Assembly: GCA_050701695.1 (NCBI GenBank) | Contig: JBOGDE010000212.1 | Span: 1 to 10,151, forward strand | Direction: 5' to 3' | From: Micromonosporaceae bacterium | Lineage (GTDB): Bacteria; Actinomycetota; Actinomycetes; Mycobacteriales; Micromonosporaceae | DNA: 10,151 nucleotides | Shown here: piece after piece, positions 2,467-10,022 of the stretch | Layout of the letters: each line of letters opens with the position of its first letter | Numbering within the stretch: the first letter of the stretch is position 1 | Program-made: the position numbers and the translations under genes | The notes under the pieces: model-generated | What the model saw: the letters and a program-made list of their open reading frames with translations, nothing else | Told to the model about the DNA's origin: nothing | Databases searched by the model: none

Positions 2467-2934
2467 CCTCTCTCCTTCTTCTCGCCAGTCGACGCGGGGT
2501 CGCCGCGCCACACTGCGGTGCGGCAGCCGTACCTCGTCCGGTTTGGAGAGGCCTACGGCGGTACGGGGATCCGCGGTGCCGGGTCGAGTGAGATCAGACA
2601 ACACGCTGACCGCCCGGCGGGCACGGACCTCCGCATCGGCGGTGAGGCGCGCAGCGGAAATCGCCGGGCGGCCCCGTTGCCGACGTACCAAGCATCGCAT
2701 GTGGGTGAGCCCAGCCACAGTCACGGGTCGATGAAGCGACCCTCCATCTCCCCCTGCGGCTGCGTGCCGTCCGGGAGGGAAGCGTTTTCCCGAAGCCGGG
2801 CGGCGCGAGCCCTCACAACTTTGGCAGGGCTCACTTATGGGAGAAATCCCTCGCTAGTCCCTCAAATCTTCCGCAATGAGGTCGCGCTCTGTGGGCCTTG
2901 CCGTCACTCTGGATAAGGACCGAACGGAGGTGCG
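2467..2934. promoter_or_regulatory. Divergent non-coding region, expected to hold the promoter and 5' UTR of the dehydrogenase operon (minus) and the promoter of the 2935 gene (plus)
   Basis: This is ~470 bp with no credible ORF on either strand. Segment 2800-2930 is distinctly less GC-rich than its surroundings: TTGGCAGGGCTCACTTATGGGAGAAATCCCTCGCTAGTCCCTCAAATCTTCCGCAATGAGG. It carries a -35-like TTGGCA at 2821-2826. I could not place exact -10 elements or a TSS with confidence. Confidence 0.3.
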
Positions 2935-3714
2935 ATGCGCCGGAGTGGTACCAGGAGGGACCTCGAGGTGGTACTCGAGGCCGTCGACCAGGCGCACCAC
3001 AGGGCGGCGGGAGACGATGCCCCGGCCGCCCCCATCGTCCTGCCCCCTCACCGGGTGCCGGTCGCGGGGGAACCCCCTGAAGCTGCCGCGTCCCTGGATG
3101 CGTCACGCGGCAGCTTCGCCCACCACGCGGCCGGCACCCCCGGTCACCGGGCCGGCGGGGTGCTGGGCTGGATTTCGGCGCACACCCAGCTGGTGGTGAT
3201 CGCGGCGTTGGTGGTGATCGCGTCGGTCGCCACCGGCATGGTGGTGACCCACGGCGCGCGACAGCTCGACGTCGCGCCGCGGGACGGCACCACGCCGTAC
3301 CTCGCGGTCGCCCCGAGCGGTCCGGTGCGGCCGCCGGCAAAGCCGGCGCCGGTGTCCGGCCAGCCGGAGGCCGACACCGCGGTACCCGCACCGCCTCCCG
3401 CCGCGCCGAATCCCACGCGGCCCACCGGTCAGCCGGAGGCGGCGGTGCCGGCCGTACCCCCAGGGGCCGACGGGTCGCCCGAGGTGGGTAGGTCGCCCGA
3501 GGTGGGTGAGGTGCCGCCGGTGCCCGAGCCCGACGATTCGGTGACCGAGCCGCCGGCGATGCCCACGCCGCCCGGCTGGTGGTGCCCCGCCGGCATGAAG
3601 CGGTACTTCGGACAGTGCGTGGTGCGCGTACCCCGGCTCCCCACGCCCCAGTTCCCGACACCGCGGCCACCGCCGCCGCCGGAGCCCGACGTGTCAGGAG
3701 TCTGGCCGCAGTAG
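2935..3714 (+). CDS. Proline-rich single-pass membrane protein with a C-terminal Cys pair (anti-sigma-factor-like architecture; function unknown)
   Basis: The start ATG at 2935 is preceded by GGAGG (2924-2928). The product has an ~80-aa basic N-terminal segment, then one hydrophobic helix (LGWISAHTQLVVIAALVVIASVATGMVV), then a ~140-aa Pro/Ala/Glu-rich low-complexity region. That region contains internal repeats: GQPEA x2, and GSPEVG/RSPEVG encoded by an 18-bp tandem duplication at 3473-3508. It ends WWCPAGMKRYFGQCVVRVP plus a PPPPEP tail. Coding is supported by third-position GC bias and the RBS. The low-complexity content lowers confidence. Confidence 0.6.
   Translation: MRRSGTRRDLEVVLEAVDQAHHRAAGDDAPAAPIVLPPHRVPVAGEPPEAAASLDASRGSFAHHAAGTPGHRAGGVLGWISAHTQLVVIAALVVIASVATGMVVTHGARQLDVAPRDGTTPYLAVAPSGPVRPPAKPAPVSGQPEADTAVPAPPPAAPNPTRPTGQPEAAVPAVPPGADGSPEVGRSPEVGEVPPVPEPDDSVTEPPAMPTPPGWWCPAGMKRYFGQCVVRVPRLPTPQFPTPRPPPPPEPDVSGVWPQ
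3473..3508 (+). repeat. 18-bp tandem direct repeat x2 (GGTCGCCCGAGGTGGGTA / GGTCGCCCGAGGTGGGTG) inside the Pro-rich gene
   Basis: 17 of 18 positions are identical. The repeat encodes the GSPEVG-RSPEVG duplication. Confidence 0.8.
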
Positions 3715-4374
3715 GGGCGGGTGCAGCCGGGTCGCCTGGCCCCGGCGGAACAGCTGGGCCGGACGTCCCCGGTCCCCGGTCGCGGTCTGGTCGGTCGCGA
3801 TCACGAAACCCGGGGTACCGGTCACCTTGCGGTGGAAGTTGCGGGGATCCAGCGGTACGCCCCAGACGACCTCGTACACCCGGCGGAGCTGGCCGACCGT
3901 GAACGCGGCCGGGCAGAACGCGGCGGCGAGCGGGGTGTACTCCAGCTTGGCGCGGGCGCGCTCCACGCCGTCGGTGAGGATCCGGTGGTGGTCGAAGGCG
4001 AGGCGGGTGCGGGTCAGGTCGGCGACGGGTCGCCACCGCGCCTCGGCGGCGTCGGAGCCGGCGGTCGGGGCGGGCAGGTCGGGCAGCAGCGCGAGGTACG
4101 CCACGGTGACCACCCGCATCCGTGGATCCCGCTCCGGGGCGCCGTAGCTGGCGAGCTGCTCCAGATGGCCGGCCTCGGCGCCGATCCCGGTCTCCTCGGC
4201 CAGCTCGCGCGCGGCCGCGTCGGGCAGGTCCTCGTCCGGTAGCACGAAGCCGCCGGGCAGCGCCCACTTCCCTTGGTACGGGGGGATGCCGCGACGTACC
4301 AGCAGGGCTTGCAGAGCGTCGTCGCGGACCGTGAGCACCACCAGGTCGACGGTGACCGCTGTCTTTTTCGTCAT
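3694..4374 (-). CDS. Nudix hydrolase domain protein with C-terminal winged-helix domain (NrtR-family ADP-ribose-responsive transcriptional regulator-like)
   Basis: The 226-aa ORF is MTKKTAVTVDLVVLTVRDD... It carries a Nudix box, GGFVLPDEDLPDAAARELAEETGI, matching Gx5Ex7REuxEExGu. The C-terminal half (FTVGQLRRVYEVVWGVPLDPRNFHRKV...) resembles the NrtR wHTH domain. The ATG at 4374 is preceded by GGAGGTG, though with a longish ~11-nt spacer. The 3' end overlaps the convergent 2935-3714 gene by 21 bp. Confidence 0.82.
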   Translation of the reverse strand: MTKKTAVTVDLVVLTVRDDALQALLVRRGIPPYQGKWALPGGFVLPDEDLPDAAARELAEETGIGAEAGHLEQLASYGAPERDPRMRVVTVAYLALLPDLPAPTAGSDAAEARWRPVADLTRTRLAFDHHRILTDGVERARAKLEYTPLAAAFCPAAFTVGQLRRVYEVVWGVPLDPRNFHRKVTGTPGFVIATDQTATGDRGRPAQLFRRGQATRLHPPLLRPDS

Positions 4375-4399
4375 GTTGACGAGAACACCTCCGGCTGAT

Positions 4400-4418
4400 T
4401 ATCGTCACTGTGACGATA
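4400..4418. promoter_or_regulatory. Perfect 19-bp palindrome TATCGTCACTGTGACGATA; candidate operator (most plausibly for the adjacent NrtR-like regulator) within the divergent promoter region
   Basis: I verified every base pair of the inverted repeat around the centre at T4409. It sits in a relatively AT-rich island (about 4396-4423, roughly 43% GC in a ~70% GC background). The island fills most of the 63-bp gap between the divergent starts at 4374 (minus) and 4438 (plus). A plausible sigma70-type promoter for the + operon is -35 TTGACG at 4376-4381, an 18-bp spacer, then -10 TATCGT at 4400-4405 (TANNNT). That placement would put the palindrome over the -10 and TSS. Confidence 0.5.
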
Positions 4419-5567: not shown

Positions 5568-6487
5568 GTCTGCTGCCCCGGGTGGTGGTGGTCCACCGCC
5601 GCAGTGAGTACGACGAGCTGCTCGCCCGGCACGGCACGCCGGGCGCAGCGGCGTACTTCCTGAGGCAGCGGGGGCGTTCGCTCGACGACGTGACCGTCCG
5701 GCACGAGGCGTTGACGGAGGCGCTGGCGGCGGTGGCGGCGGCCGTACCGGCGGACTGGCGGCGCGGATCGGTGCGGCGCGAGGACCTGCCCCGGTTCCTG
5801 TTCGGGCCCGAAGACATCGTGGTGACCGTCGGCCAGGACGGGCTGGTCGCCAACGTCGCGAAGTATCTCGACGGGCAGCCGGTGGTCGGTGTCGACCCGG
5901 AGTCCGGCCGCAACCCCGGCGTGCTGGCCCGGCACGCCGCCGGCGCGGTCGGCGAGCTGCTGCGCGCGGTCGCCGCCGGGAGTGCCGAGACGCAGCAGCG
6001 CACCATGGTCGAGGCCGAGCTGGACGACGGCCAGACCCTGTACGGCCTCAACGAGATCTACGTCGGTCACGCCGGCCACCAGTCGGCCCGGTACGTCGTG
6101 TCTGTAGCGGGGACTGCCGCTCGCACCGTGGGTCGTACGGGGGCCACGCGGCGCGAGCGGCAGTCCTCCTCCGGGATCGTGATCGGGACCGGCACCGGCG
6201 CCACCGGCTGGTGCGCCTCGATCGCGGGCGAGCGCGCGACGCCGCCCGCGCTGCCGGCACCCGGGGCCGCCACACTGTGCTGGTTCGTACGGGAGGCCTG
6301 GCCCTCGCCGGTCACCGGCACCAGCCTGACCGGCGGCGTGCTGGCCGAGGGGGAGTCGCTGGAGGTGGCCTGCGAGAGCGAACGGCTGGTGGCGTTCGCC
6401 GACGGGCTGGAAGCCGATCATCTGGCGCTCACCTGGGGTCAGCGGCTCACCGTACGGGTCTCCTCCCGCCGGCTCAACCTGGTCTGA
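5564..6487 (+). CDS. Atypical ATP-NAD kinase-fold protein (NAD kinase / diacylglycerol-kinase catalytic superfamily), non-canonical GQDG in place of GGDG
   Basis: The product carries VVTVGQDGLVANVAKYL (compare NAD kinase GGDGT[LM]L), YGLNEIYVGH (compare the NE[VI] motif) and SGIVIGTGTGATGWCASIAGE (compare DG...STPTGSTAYSLSAGGP). I chose the GTG at 5564 because GAGGG sits 6 nt upstream. An in-frame GTG at 5522, the ORF-track start, is the alternative. The gene lies in the same operon as the SPFH gene. Confidence 0.72.
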   Translation: MSLLPRVVVVHRRSEYDELLARHGTPGAAAYFLRQRGRSLDDVTVRHEALTEALAAVAAAVPADWRRGSVRREDLPRFLFGPEDIVVTVGQDGLVANVAKYLDGQPVVGVDPESGRNPGVLARHAAGAVGELLRAVAAGSAETQQRTMVEAELDDGQTLYGLNEIYVGHAGHQSARYVVSVAGTAARTVGRTGATRRERQSSSGIVIGTGTGATGWCASIAGERATPPALPAPGAATLCWFVREAWPSPVTGTSLTGGVLAEGESLEVACESERLVAFADGLEADHLALTWGQRLTVRVSSRRLNLV

Positions 6488-6513: not shown

Positions 6514-7053
6514 TCAGGCCAGCAGCTCGCGGGGCCGTACGGTGACCTGGCCGGGGCCGAAGCTGATGGTGGCTTCATCGTCGGGGCCGAGCTGGAGCCG
6601 TTCGGCGTAGCCGTGGCCCTCCAGCTCGAAGACCAGCAGCTCGGGGCCCTCCGGGTCGATGATCCAGTAGCGCGGCAGTCCGGCGGCGGCGTACTTGCCG
6701 AACTTGCGGACCAGGTCGGCGGCGCGGTCCGTGGAGAGCACCTCGACGGCCAGATGTGGGGTGCCGTGGAACCGCTTGTCCTCCCCAGCCTCGTCGAAGA
6801 CGATCACGTCGGAGCCGAACTCGTCCGCGCCAGGTTTCCAGCCCCAGCTCATCCGAGCCCGCACACCCGGTGGCGTGGCCGCGTCGATCACCTACCACAA
6901 CCTTGCGCAGATGTCCTGGTGCCGCCCGCTGGGCATCGGGGACATCACGAGGCATCCGTCGATGTACTCGCCACGCACATCGGGGCCGAGGGCTTCGTAT
7001 TCGTCCCACGACATGGGGATGCGGTGTGCCTCGTCCACCGCGGGTCGCGCCAT
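6514..7053 (-). pseudogene. Uma2-family (DUF820) PD-(D/E)xK-type putative endonuclease interrupted by a single in-frame TAG (amber) codon
   Basis: The N-terminal part (7053..6895) reads [53 protein letters not shown], then TAG at 6894..6892. The same reading frame (all positions 0 mod 3) continues directly as VIDAATPPGV...FHGTPHLAVEVLSTDRAADLVRKFGKYAAAGLPRYWIIDPEGPELLVFEL...*. Both halves carry Uma2 hallmarks: (Y/W)xxxDGxL..MSP at the N-terminus and PDLAVEVLS...Y...G(V/L)PEYW(L/I)(V/I)DP at the C-terminus. The ATG at 7053 is preceded by GAGGAGG. The 13-nt spacing is longish. Confidence 0.8.
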
Positions 7054-7724: not shown

Positions 7725-8642
7725 ATGCGAAGGCCGTTGACCGCACTGCTGCTGCTCGCCGCCGTCGCGTTCGTACCCAGCGCCGCATCCGCGCAGGTCG
7801 GCGGCGGGTTGACCGAGGGGTGCCTGTACACCGTCGACTCGGGGGAGGTGCCCGAGATGGCGCGGGGCGAGGGCAGTACTCCGCGTGAGCCCGAGCTGCG
7901 CATGACGTACCAGGAGCTGCCCGACAGCGCCAAGGGCAAGGGCAAGAAGTGGAGCAGCATCGTCACCGTGCCGGTGTGGTTCCACGTGGTGCACGACAAC
8001 GGGGTCGGCAACGTCTCCGACGCCGACATCGCGCGCCAGATCCGGATCATGAACAACGGCTACTCCGGGGCGTACGGCGGGTACGACCAGGGCTTCCGCT
8101 TCGAGCTGGTCGGCGTGACCCGTACCAACAACGCGGAGTGGTACAACGCCGGGCCGACCACGCCGGGTGAGCGCGCGATGAAGCAGGCGCTGCGGCGCGG
8201 CGACATGGGCACGCTGAACTACTACTCGACCACCGCCGGCCCGTACCTGGGCTGGGCGTACTACCCGGGGCTGCCGGACGCCACCGCCTACCTGGACGGG
8301 CTGGTCGTGGACTGGGAGTCGATGTACAAGACCTCCGACCGGTACGCCGGCCGCTACGACCTGGGCTTCACCGCGGTGCACGAGGTGGGGCACTGGTTCG
8401 CGCTGGCGCACACCTTCGACGGCGGCTGCAACGCGCACGGCGACCACGTCGACGACACCCCGGCGATGAAGGTGCCGACCAGCGGCTGCCCGGCCGACGG
8501 CACCAAGGACACCTGCCCGAGGGACCCGGGCTTCGACCCGATCCACAACTTCATGGACTACTCGACCGACTACTGCTACGAGGAGCTGACCCAGGGCCAG
8601 GCGGAGCGTTCCCGCGACTACTGGCTGGAGTTCCGCGCCTGA
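7725..8642 (+). CDS. Secreted zinc metalloprotease, peptidase family M43 (pappalysin/ulilysin-type metzincin)
   Basis: A signal peptide, MRRPLTALLLLAAVAFVPSAASA-QV, is present. The zinc-binding motif HEVGHWFALAHTF is at 8379-8411. A Met-turn, NFMDYS, and several Cys residues suggest disulfides. AGGAGGA (7714-7720) lies 4 nt before the ATG. Confidence 0.85.
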   Translation: MRRPLTALLLLAAVAFVPSAASAQVGGGLTEGCLYTVDSGEVPEMARGEGSTPREPELRMTYQELPDSAKGKGKKWSSIVTVPVWFHVVHDNGVGNVSDADIARQIRIMNNGYSGAYGGYDQGFRFELVGVTRTNNAEWYNAGPTTPGERAMKQALRRGDMGTLNYYSTTAGPYLGWAYYPGLPDATAYLDGLVVDWESMYKTSDRYAGRYDLGFTAVHEVGHWFALAHTFDGGCNAHGDHVDDTPAMKVPTSGCPADGTKDTCPRDPGFDPIHNFMDYSTDYCYEELTQGQAERSRDYWLEFRA

Positions 8643-8663
8643 GCGCTGAGCGCTGAGTGCTGA
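8640..8663 (+). repeat. Heptad tandem repeat TGAGCGC TGAGCGC TGAGTGC TGA, placing TGA stops in all three frames
   Basis: The TGAs at 8640, 8647, 8654 and 8661 cover frames 0, 1, 2 and 0. The first is the metalloprotease stop. Confidence 0.7.
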
Positions 8664-8664
8664 A

Positions 8665-8695
8665 GGGCCTGCCGGGCCGTCCACCCGGCAGGCCT
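8665..8695. terminator. Stem-loop (11-bp perfect GC-rich stem GGCCTGCCGGG/CCCGGCAGGCC plus one G-U pair, 7-nt loop) between convergent genes; likely bidirectional intrinsic terminator
   Basis: Pairing 8666-8676 with 8684-8694 was verified base by base. No U-tract follows, which is common in high-GC actinomycetes. The stem-loop sits between the 3' ends of the metalloprotease gene (+) and the 8777 gene (-). Confidence 0.55.
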
Positions 8696-8704
8696 CACGC
8701 TCGT

Positions 8705-8776
8705 CCGGGGCCGGGGCCGGGGCCGGGGCCGGGGCCGGGGCCGGGGCTGGGGCTGGGGCTGGGGCTGGGGCTGGGG
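8705..8776 (+). repeat. Hexanucleotide microsatellite (CCGGGG)7(CTGGGG)5, i.e. (GGGGCC)n/(GGGGCT)n; 12 consecutive G4 tracts on the + strand
   Basis: I counted units starting at 8705, 8711, 8717, 8723, 8729, 8735 and 8741 (CCGGGG), then 8747, 8753, 8759, 8765 and 8771 (CTGGGG). The repeat ends exactly at the stop codon (TGA at 8779..8777, minus strand) of the downstream convergent gene. Confidence 0.9.
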
Positions 8777-10022
8777 TCAGTCCTGGCCGCGGCGGGCGCG
8801 GTCGGCGAGCACCCACTCCAGGACAGCTTCCTCGTCCATCGGGTCCACCCCGTCGGCCACCATCCGGGACAGCATGTCGGTGACCGGCTCGCCGAGCGCC
8901 TCACCCGCCATCAGATCGGTGTACGGCACCACGAACTCGGTGATCGCGTGCCGGGTGGCCGCGATCGCCGGCACCGCCTCGTCGCGGACCCGCCCGGCGT
9001 ACGTGATGAACGCGTCGAGGATCTCCGGCAGCCATGGTGCCGCCCGGTGGCCGGGCGCGATCTGCCGCGGGGTCCAGTCCAGCAGGAACAGCTCCACCGC
9101 GGTCGGGCTCCAACGCAGCGGATCGCCGGTGTTGTCGTCGCAGCCGAAGTCGACCGCCGCGCGCGCCCCCCAGGCGATCACCTCGATGGCGGGCGGCTCC
9201 TGGCCGGGGCTCGACACCCCCACCAGCGTCGCCTCCGGCGCGTCCAGGAACGCCGCGACCACCACGTCTCGTTCCGCGTCGTCGAGCCGTCGCGGCCGCG
9301 GCGTCGGCTCTCCTTCCGGGAGTACGGCGAGCCGGGCCAGCGCGAAGCCCCGGTCCTCGTGGTACGTGTCGCTGTACGGCTCGGTCAGCTCGTCGGTGCG
9401 CCCCAGGTACGCGGTGGTGTCCGCGCGCAGCCGCCCGGCGTCCACCGTCTCGATCGTCAGCTCCGGGTCCTCGGCGCACTCGGTCTGCCAGGCGCCCACC
9501 ACCTGCGCGGCGGGCACTCCGACCGTGATGTCCTTGCAGCAGCCGAGGTTGTGGTCGAGCAGGTACGACACCGCGTGATCCGGCCCGCCCCGCTCCGGGT
9601 CGGGGTACTCGTACGTGGCGATGTACTGGGTCTGGTCGCCGTAGTTGTCGCGTACCGCCCAGGTGCCGGTGCAGGTCGCGGCGCCGGCGGAGTCGAGCCA
9701 CGCCGGGCCGGTCTTCGGCGCTTTCACCTGGTCCGGGACCACGGCGGCGAGGGCGGCGCGTACCCCCTGGGCCTCGCTGGTACGCCGTTTCGCCAAGTAG
9801 CCACCGAAGTCGGCGGCGAACTGGCGTACCGCGTCGGGGCCGTGGGAGTCGTCGGCGGCGGCGTACACCCCTCCCAGCAGCGCCGAGGCGGCGAGCTCGG
9901 CGTCGAGAGCGAGCGGCATCGCGGCGATCGGCGCGGCCTCTTTGAGGATCGCGCCGAAGACCAGGTCGGTGGGGCCGGCGGTGGACTCGGGCTGTGGGCG
10001 GCGCGGCATCCGGCCACCATAC
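8777..10022 (-). CDS. Hypothetical acidic protein (~415 aa), no recognisable domain
   Basis: The ORF is long, with strong third-position GC bias and protein-like composition: ...YIATYEYPDPERGGPDHAVSYLLDHNLGCCKDITVGVPAAQVVGAWQTECAEDPELTIETVD... I placed the start at the ATG at 10022..10020 (MPRRPQPESTAG...). The ORF-track alternative is the GTG at 10057. Neither has a strong RBS. The stop abuts the G-rich hexanucleotide repeat. Confidence 0.6.

Follow-up and report, generated by a model that had tools for sequence, protein, structure and literature searches.

The spacer between two convergent genes of an uncultured, soil-type actinobacterium contains a compound hexanucleotide microsatellite, (CCGGGG)7(CTGGGG)5, that is probably young and lineage-specific and arose by replication slippage, rather than being a conserved functional element. 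It lies in the window, by which we mean the whole stretch of DNA analysed: a complete 10,151-nt contig of about 72% G+C from a short-read Micromonosporaceae MAG. Table 1 lists the features of the spacer and of the genes beside it. Along the + strand the spacer, 134 nt from stop to stop, reads as a heptamer array over the peptidase stop, a hairpin, a linker and the hexamer array, which ends at the base before the TGA (8777–8779; TCA on the + strand) of the gene for the conserved hypothetical protein P0001. The locus is a further example of the bacterial intergenic compound microsatellite, a kind already known; as one more of these, with no sign of selection, it carries little biological weight.

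Table 1. Features of the convergent spacer and its flanking genes in the window.
Feature	Position (nt)	Strand	Evidence and remarks
Secreted M43 (pappalysin-type) zinc metallopeptidase gene, convergent neighbour, 305 aa	7725–8642	+	Pfam PF05572, E = 4.1e-13; HExxH in translation
Second tandem array, (CTGAGCG)×3.6	8639–8663	+	TRF score 43; overlaps M43 peptidase TGA
G+C-rich hairpin (arms 8666–8676 and 8684–8694)	8666–8694		11 bp, 100% complementary, 7-nt loop
Non-repetitive linker, 10 nt, TCACGCTCGT	8695–8704		Sequence; L002 has it too
Compound hexanucleotide microsatellite, (CCGGGG)7(CTGGGG)5, 72 nt	8705–8776	+	Exact string match
(CCGGGG)7 block	8705–8746	+	Exact string match, TRF; minus-strand mRNA (CCCCGG)7
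(CTGGGG)5 block	8747–8776	+	Exact string match; minus-strand mRNA (CCCCAG)5, directly after the stop codon
Conserved hypothetical protein gene, 410 aa (P0001; 'MAG: hypothetical protein ACRDT6_19080, Micromonosporaceae bacterium')	8777–10009	−	Translation, 100% match

A sequence-only reading of the window had described exactly this array, with twelve G tracts on the + strand, a start 10 nt past the hairpin and an end at the TGA of the 8777 gene, and string matching, TRF and the coordinates agree with it on each point. TRF gave the array a score of 109 (period 6, 12.0 copies, 98% matches). The longest perfect period-6 tract measures 43 nt, whereas 500 dinucleotide-preserving shuffles reached at most 19 nt (mean 13.3); chance does not account for the array. 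It consists of short units arranged head to tail over a length far beyond the composition expectation, as is the definition of a microsatellite. The CTGGGG unit is a variant of CCGGGG with a single C>T change, amplified five times. Since both blocks are pure, one unit must have changed from C to T and then been amplified, so that expansion went on after the mutation. Such a compound structure is typical where slippage is followed by mutation and then by more slippage. Like the intergenic SSRs described in bacteria (Huang & Mrazek 2014, PMC4060949), the array is lineage-specific, lies outside coding sequence and repeats a short unit perfectly from head to tail; tandem repeats with units of at least 4 nt are normally represented in prokaryotes and not suppressed (PMC4060949). 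Long SSRs have been reported to correlate with host dependence (PMC4060949), whereas the organism carrying this array is a free-living, soil-type, high-GC bacterium.

The array is seen only in near-identical members of one population, from which we recovered three further contigs (L001, L002 and L003). L001, from another NCBI MAG, is 99.93% identical to the window over 5,555 nt and ends 8 nt short of the array. L002, from the Logan assembly of SRR27067772, differs by 1 mismatch and ends 30 nt into the CCGGGG block; as this is k−1 for k = 31, at least 6 units must be present in SRR27067772. L003, from the same Logan assembly, matches the window at 100% identity and breaks off right at the TGA, before any of the (CCCCAG) block. 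Thus a single assembly spans the array, and the three contigs from two other assemblies end there. L002 independently confirms the array and the junction on its left, while the CTGGGG block and the unit count come from the window's assembly only. The array, its CTGGGG block or its length could in principle have been made or distorted by the short-read metagenome assembler, as the breaks in both other assemblies and the lack of a second contig across the array might suggest. We regard such an artefact as highly unlikely, however. CGT followed by (CCGGGG)5 occurs independently at the same junction in L002, the join is syntenic with that in the relative L004, where the same two genes converge, 150-nt reads can cover 72 nt, and an assembly error would not look like five identical variant units.

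We note that the end of L003 at the TGA departs from what a k = 31 graph would be expected to yield for the window's sequence, possibly reflecting a second allele in the sample or a loss of coverage over the G-rich array. Scanning metagenomes with the 24-nt junction of hairpin and array gave 0 matches, and scanning them with the P0001 protein gave 181 pattern matches, 0 of which were confirmed by tblastn. That it fragments short-read assemblies is the main practical significance of the array: repeats of this type break up MAGs of high-GC taxa unnoticed, and a copy number read from a MAG is not trustworthy.

The longest open reading frame of the P0001 gene reaches 10057, where it starts with GTG; the database protein begins at a Met 16 codons in, and an exact-protein look-up with the 426-aa translation of the full frame accordingly gave no match. 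Pfam assigns no family to P0001, the homologues of which are almost confined to the Micromonosporaceae; distant matches in its family carry DUF6398 (PF19935). In four relatives (L006, L127, L128 and L130) the P0001-family gene closely follows one or two large dynamin-like/RsgA-like GTPase genes, with a small PIN or MarR gene in between in L127 and L128. This arrangement suggests that the neighbourhood of GTPase and P0001-family genes may be functionally conserved; the right end of the window would cut it off. On the other side of the spacer, an identical M43 peptidase protein is encoded on L001 and L002.

The hairpin is common to both convergent genes and was present in all folds. No T-run follows it on either strand and, because of this, a consensus terminator scan returned 0 sites: the stem of an intrinsic terminator is there and the U-tract is not. 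The hairpin resembles the U-less 'I-shaped' or HS-U-lack class of high-GC actinomycetes (PMC8269248), and is likely to be a bidirectional terminator or a stem-loop that protects 3' ends. Position 8683 in its loop is A in the window and G in the two overlapping contigs (L001 5543, L002 1113), the single difference here; a G would add a C-G pair, giving a 12-bp stem and a 5-nt loop.

The closest relative (L004/L005, 76% amino acid identity) has the same convergent gene pair and keeps the core of the hairpin (CCTGCCGGG/CCCGGCAGG, common to the window and L004), and the repeat is absent from it. Its spacer is only 37 nt long, with the TGA followed at once by the hairpin, then 12 nt and the CTA of the peptidase stop. 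The array is absent also from L006 (74% amino acid identity), in which there is no peptidase gene, and from L127, L128 and L130, in which the gene has other neighbours. Absence from relatives was among the outcomes that, for the sequence-only reading, would point to a neutral SSR; this part of its test came out so in L004/L005, L006, L127, L128 and L130. Absence at orthologous sites is also what the rapid turnover of microsatellites produces. The heptamer array is present in L001 and L002 and absent from L004. Both tandem arrays of the spacer are therefore additions in the window's lineage, the hexamer array having been placed exactly between the stop codon and the arm of the hairpin. No database protein is between 76% and 100% identical to P0001, so the age of the array is only loosely bounded.

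Other insertions and duplications were observed at these gene ends. In L006 the place of the M43 peptidase gene, past the end of the P0001 homologue, is taken by a 170-nt MITE-like element (6297–6466) whose terminal inverted repeats measure 23 nt (CTAGGGTCTGTCCTGTGGATCTT, 96% complementary). In L127 the final ~22 nt of the P0004 homologue, its TGA included, recur past the stop (3324–3400) in about three degenerate tandem copies, reading …GGGAACGGGACTGA / CCGGCACCCGGGGAATCGGACTGA / CCCGCGCCCGGGAACGGCACTGA…; a duplication has thus taken place at this gene end in a relative too. The heptamer array of the window puts a TGA into all three frames at the end of the M43 peptidase gene.

The same comparison bears on whether the array is, or was, coding. 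Reading on past the stop in frame had been predicted to give PQ/PR dipeptides, and the translation is indeed (PQ)5(PR)7, in a frame that stays open for 52 codons past the TGA (the dipeptide tract plus 28 codons). The array might then be the remnant of a C-terminal PQ/PR tail lost to a recent nonsense mutation, or a reserve added to the protein by stop read-through, and more than half of the (CCGGGG)n arrays elsewhere, among the matches listed, do fall in predicted coding regions. Against this, in an alignment of 15 homologues the C-terminus ...WVLADRARRGxD* is kept, with the same last residue, in the 11 closest homologues; the stop is therefore ancestral, and at no time did the protein include the repeat. 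None of these close homologues, all ending at ...ARRGxD*, has a Pro-rich tail, and in the closest relative it is the hairpin that lies directly 3' of the stop. The array is outside the reading frame of the P0001 gene and of those of the 11 homologues, and thus not a dipeptide-repeat coding sequence. The C-terminal conservation effectively excludes a coding origin, and the geometry of the open reading frames bears out the non-coding position, in which changes in unit number shift no frame, as had been noted from the sequence.

We therefore return to replication slippage. The array grew in the only position of the spacer free of sequence constraint, between the ancestral stop and the conserved hairpin, probably by slipped-strand mispairing that was favoured when the G-rich strand folded into a hairpin or a G-quadruplex. 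A folded G-rich strand stabilises slipped intermediates. The 72 extra bases past the stop and before the hairpin, in a spacer in which a consensus scan found no promoter-like sites, would disturb nothing.

Orientation may explain why the array persists. In E. coli, a G4-forming repeat mutated ~350-fold faster when its G-rich strand was the non-template strand, since transcription displaces that strand into an R-loop-associated G4 (PMC7023247). In the window the abutting gene is transcribed from the G-rich strand, which would be the stable orientation: routine transcription of this gene would yield C-rich RNA without displacing the G-rich strand into an R-loop or G4, and the G-rich strand would be non-template solely for such rare M43 transcripts as get past the hairpin. 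The net effect of the array is probably neutral, a view that follows from its lack of conservation, or at most a mild, strand-specific change in 3'-end formation.

As a slippage-prone SSR beside a gene, the array recalls the phase-variation contingency loci of Haemophilus, Neisseria, Campylobacter and Mycoplasma. Unlike these it lies between two 3' ends, is part of no promoter or reading frame, and provides no on/off switch. Because of this position and of a unit that is a multiple of three, changes in its length cannot switch either gene. Phase variation was thus ruled out by geometry: convergent stops on both sides, a frame-preserving 6-nt unit and no promoter-like sites.

On the mRNA of the abutting gene the array reads C48 G19 A5 U0 (67% C, 26% G), and it is the most strand-skewed 72-nt segment of the window. 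In the fold predicted for this RNA, the (CCCCAG)5 half is nearly unstructured and the (CCCCGG)7 half pairs with itself via CCGG cores, with a predicted folding energy of −23.8 kcal/mol for the C-rich 72-mer. Rfam covariance models searched against 8400–9000 on both strands (E ≤ 1) gave no match. These properties raise the possibility of a Rho-loading, rut-like element in the 3' untranslated region. Once ribosomes had left the mRNA at the TGA, Rho would load on the bared C-rich RNA and terminate transcription downstream, with the hairpin guarding the processed 3' end, and transcription would be kept from running antisense into the M43 gene. Known rut sites are C>G, weakly structured, optimally 60–90 nt long and bound via YC dinucleotides (PMC12360218). 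The array is likewise C>G and U-poor, 72 nt long, weakly structured in one half and untranslated, begins at the first base past the stop and lies upstream of a U-less stem-loop; U-less hairpins are common as 3' ends in Streptomyces, where they resemble the ends of Rho-terminated transcripts (PMC8269248). A tendency of similar arrays near stops to be C-rich in the mRNA (11:5; see below) is in the direction expected. The array differs from rut sites in being a perfect repeat rather than loosely C-rich and in not being conserved, and sequence is an unreliable guide to rut sites (PMC12360218). Moreover, the closest relatives have the hairpin alone, the (CCCCGG)7 half is able to self-pair, and the 11:5 bias is non-significant and has a mutational explanation (PMC7023247). 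A Rho-loading function is therefore unlikely in our view, slippage with a neutral outcome being preferred. No rho gene lies within the 10-kb window.

The + strand has the complementary property. Its twelve G4 runs, separated by 2-nt loops, make up three non-overlapping canonical G4N2 quadruplex motifs, and the array thus agrees with the general sequence rule for a predicted G-quadruplex (at least four runs of at least three G, with loops of 1–7 nt). It holds the only + strand PQS of the window, with a mean G4Hunter score of 1.87 over 8702–8786, and ViennaRNA with G4 energies enabled predicts that the strand folds into three quadruplexes. At the level of sequence, then, the G4 potential proposed at the outset is well founded, while hairpin folds that would compete with the G4 are predicted for (GGGGCC)n too.

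A role as transcriptional roadblock, insulator or mRNA stabiliser had also been proposed, and for this we find no support. As a roadblock, up to three G4s, formed in the DNA or in M43 read-through RNA, would keep polymerases that had escaped the hairpin from entering the opposite gene. The predicted motifs and folds are consistent with this, M43 read-through would have the G-rich strand as its non-template, an arrangement in which transcription induces G4 formation in E. coli (PMC7023247), and bacterial G4 motifs are enriched after gene ends (PMC12581993). In the mRNA of the abutting gene the array is C-rich, however, so G4 RNA or a non-template G4 could arise only via M43 read-through past the hairpin, and with a strong hairpin upstream few M43 transcripts are expected at the array. 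The same orientation is mutationally unstable when transcribed (PMC7023247), which argues against heavy read-through, the G4 would have to compete with the predicted (GGGGCC)n hairpins, and the array is not conserved in L004/L005, L006, L127, L128 or L130. A G-quadruplex or R-loop roadblock would on these grounds be very unlikely.

In lying just past a gene end, on the template strand of the upstream gene, the array is like the template-strand G4 motifs of the Quadrupia catalogue (PMC12581993). The array is a hexamer microsatellite, whereas the enrichment found in the catalogue is statistical and concerns mostly single G4 motifs, with no established mechanism. The repeat unit is also identical to that of human C9orf72 (GGGGCC)n, as are the predicted structures, in which the G-rich strand forms a G4 or a hairpin opposite a C-rich complement, and the C9orf72 dipeptide frames (PR, GP, GA, PA, GR) would apply to the array if it were translated. 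Here the setting is bacterial, the units number 7+5 rather than hundreds, and the location is an intergenic 3' spacer rather than an intron. The likeness is chemical only, and the array shows no evidence of translation or of transcription of the G-rich strand.

Long perfect hexamer repeats had been called unusual in bacterial intergenic DNA, which proved an overstatement. A scan for (CCGGGG)5 in one genome per species found at least 120 stretches with five or more units, nearly all in high-GC taxa. Among the matches listed, 38 are from Streptomyces and several from Micromonospora, Frankia, Pseudonocardia and Kribbella, with others from Burkholderiales and Myxococcota. Perfect units number five in 64 of the 120 arrays listed, six in 28, seven in 12, eight in 8, nine in 5, ten in 1 and twelve in 2. 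The median period-6 tract among these matches is 42 nt, and 10 of the 120 reach at least 72 nt, so that the array of the window stands in the upper tail for its unit.

Genes at the comparison loci were predicted with a crude GC3-based finder, which on the window matches the L001 gene calls wherever the two overlap. By these predictions about 55–60% of the arrays listed are in coding sequence and about 40% outside it. Several of the intergenic arrays repeat the layout seen in the window. In Micromonospora sp. NPDC000119 (L068) the stop of a cold-shock gene is followed by a hairpin, (CCGGGG)6, 18 nt and the stop of a convergent gene (the 64-aa open reading frame beside this array has no Pfam match), and in Streptomyces sp. 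NBC_01077 (L082) a polyprenyl synthetase gene and a TetR gene point at each other across (CCGGGG)5. Arrays were also found 0–13 nt past the stops of thiolase, LacI, ABC-2, AMP-ligase, pol III delta' and TetR genes. Pfam matches reach the C-termini in most of these cases, indicating that most of the stops next to arrays are real gene ends. Compound arrays recur as well, with (CCGGGG)5(CTGGGG)2 in L042, (CCGGGG)8(TTGGGG)8 in L104 and (CCGGGG)8(CCGGAG)5 in L122. The array of the window is thus long for its kind, and its class is a recurrent one, arising independently at unrelated genes.

We also compared the positions of the arrays with those of array-free spacers. Fifteen array-bearing spacers with predicted genes within 500 nt were available, the window excluded, and 333 array-free spacers from the same loci served as reference. 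Seven of the 15 are convergent, seven tandem and one divergent, where spacer length would predict 19% convergent and 27% divergent (binomial p = 0.014 for the convergent excess). This excess fits the survival of arrays where there is no promoter to disturb. With the window included, arrays within 60 nt of a stop place the C-rich strand in the mRNA in 11 cases and the G-rich strand in 5, and within 30 nt the ratio is 7:3; neither is significant. The direction of the 11:5 excess agrees with the template-strand bias of the Quadrupia catalogue, in which the enrichment of bacterial G4 motifs past gene ends is 2.78-fold for the template strand and 1.54-fold for the non-template strand (PMC12581993).

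Convergent enrichment and the 11:5 orientation excess are equally expected from a function at 3' ends. Post-stop (GGGGCC)n arrays with a G-rich template strand would then be recurrent, independently evolving and tunable 3'-end elements of high-GC bacteria. If true, the C-rich RNA would recruit Rho for the upstream gene, the G-rich strand would act as a G4/R-loop trap for convergent polymerases, and slippage in unit number would tune termination and antisense interference, amounting to a 'contingency locus' that acts on termination and not on initiation or translation. We hold this to be highly improbable. GGGGCC arrays after stops in convergent spacers, with the G-rich strand as template, are nevertheless a modest lead suggested by this side survey; if the pattern holds for larger numbers of arrays in properly annotated genomes, they would offer a simple natural system in which to set mutational survivorship against a termination role for G4-prone repeats at gene ends.

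Some further repeats deserve mention. In L104 (2194–2286, from an Acidimicrobiaceae MAG) the (TTGGGG)8 block consists of the Tetrahymena-type telomere unit and is followed by a run of N, so that the locus is either another compound array or a scaffolding artefact. Two Micromonospora species, with (CCGGGG)10 in L099 and (CCGGGG)6 in L088, were considered as an orthologous locus with 10 versus 6 units, and this was rejected as BLAST showed that the flanks are unshared. Directly 5' of the array, the two do share an inverted-repeat element of about 76–79 nt, CGCCGATCTTGCAC...TGCAAGATCG (L099 1590–1665; L088, in the orientation of the array, 1302–1380), perhaps a small element, mobile or repeated, by which the hexamer array is carried or seeded. 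Elsewhere in the window TRF found a 30-nt repeat of 2.0 copies inside a predicted gene (6615–6675, score 80) and an 18-nt repeat of 2.2 copies (3473–3512, score 73). The latter lies in an open reading frame called by the GC3 finder on the + strand (2935–3714), in a region where 2831–4408 is open on the − strand as well and where L001, which starts at window position 3143, has no called gene.
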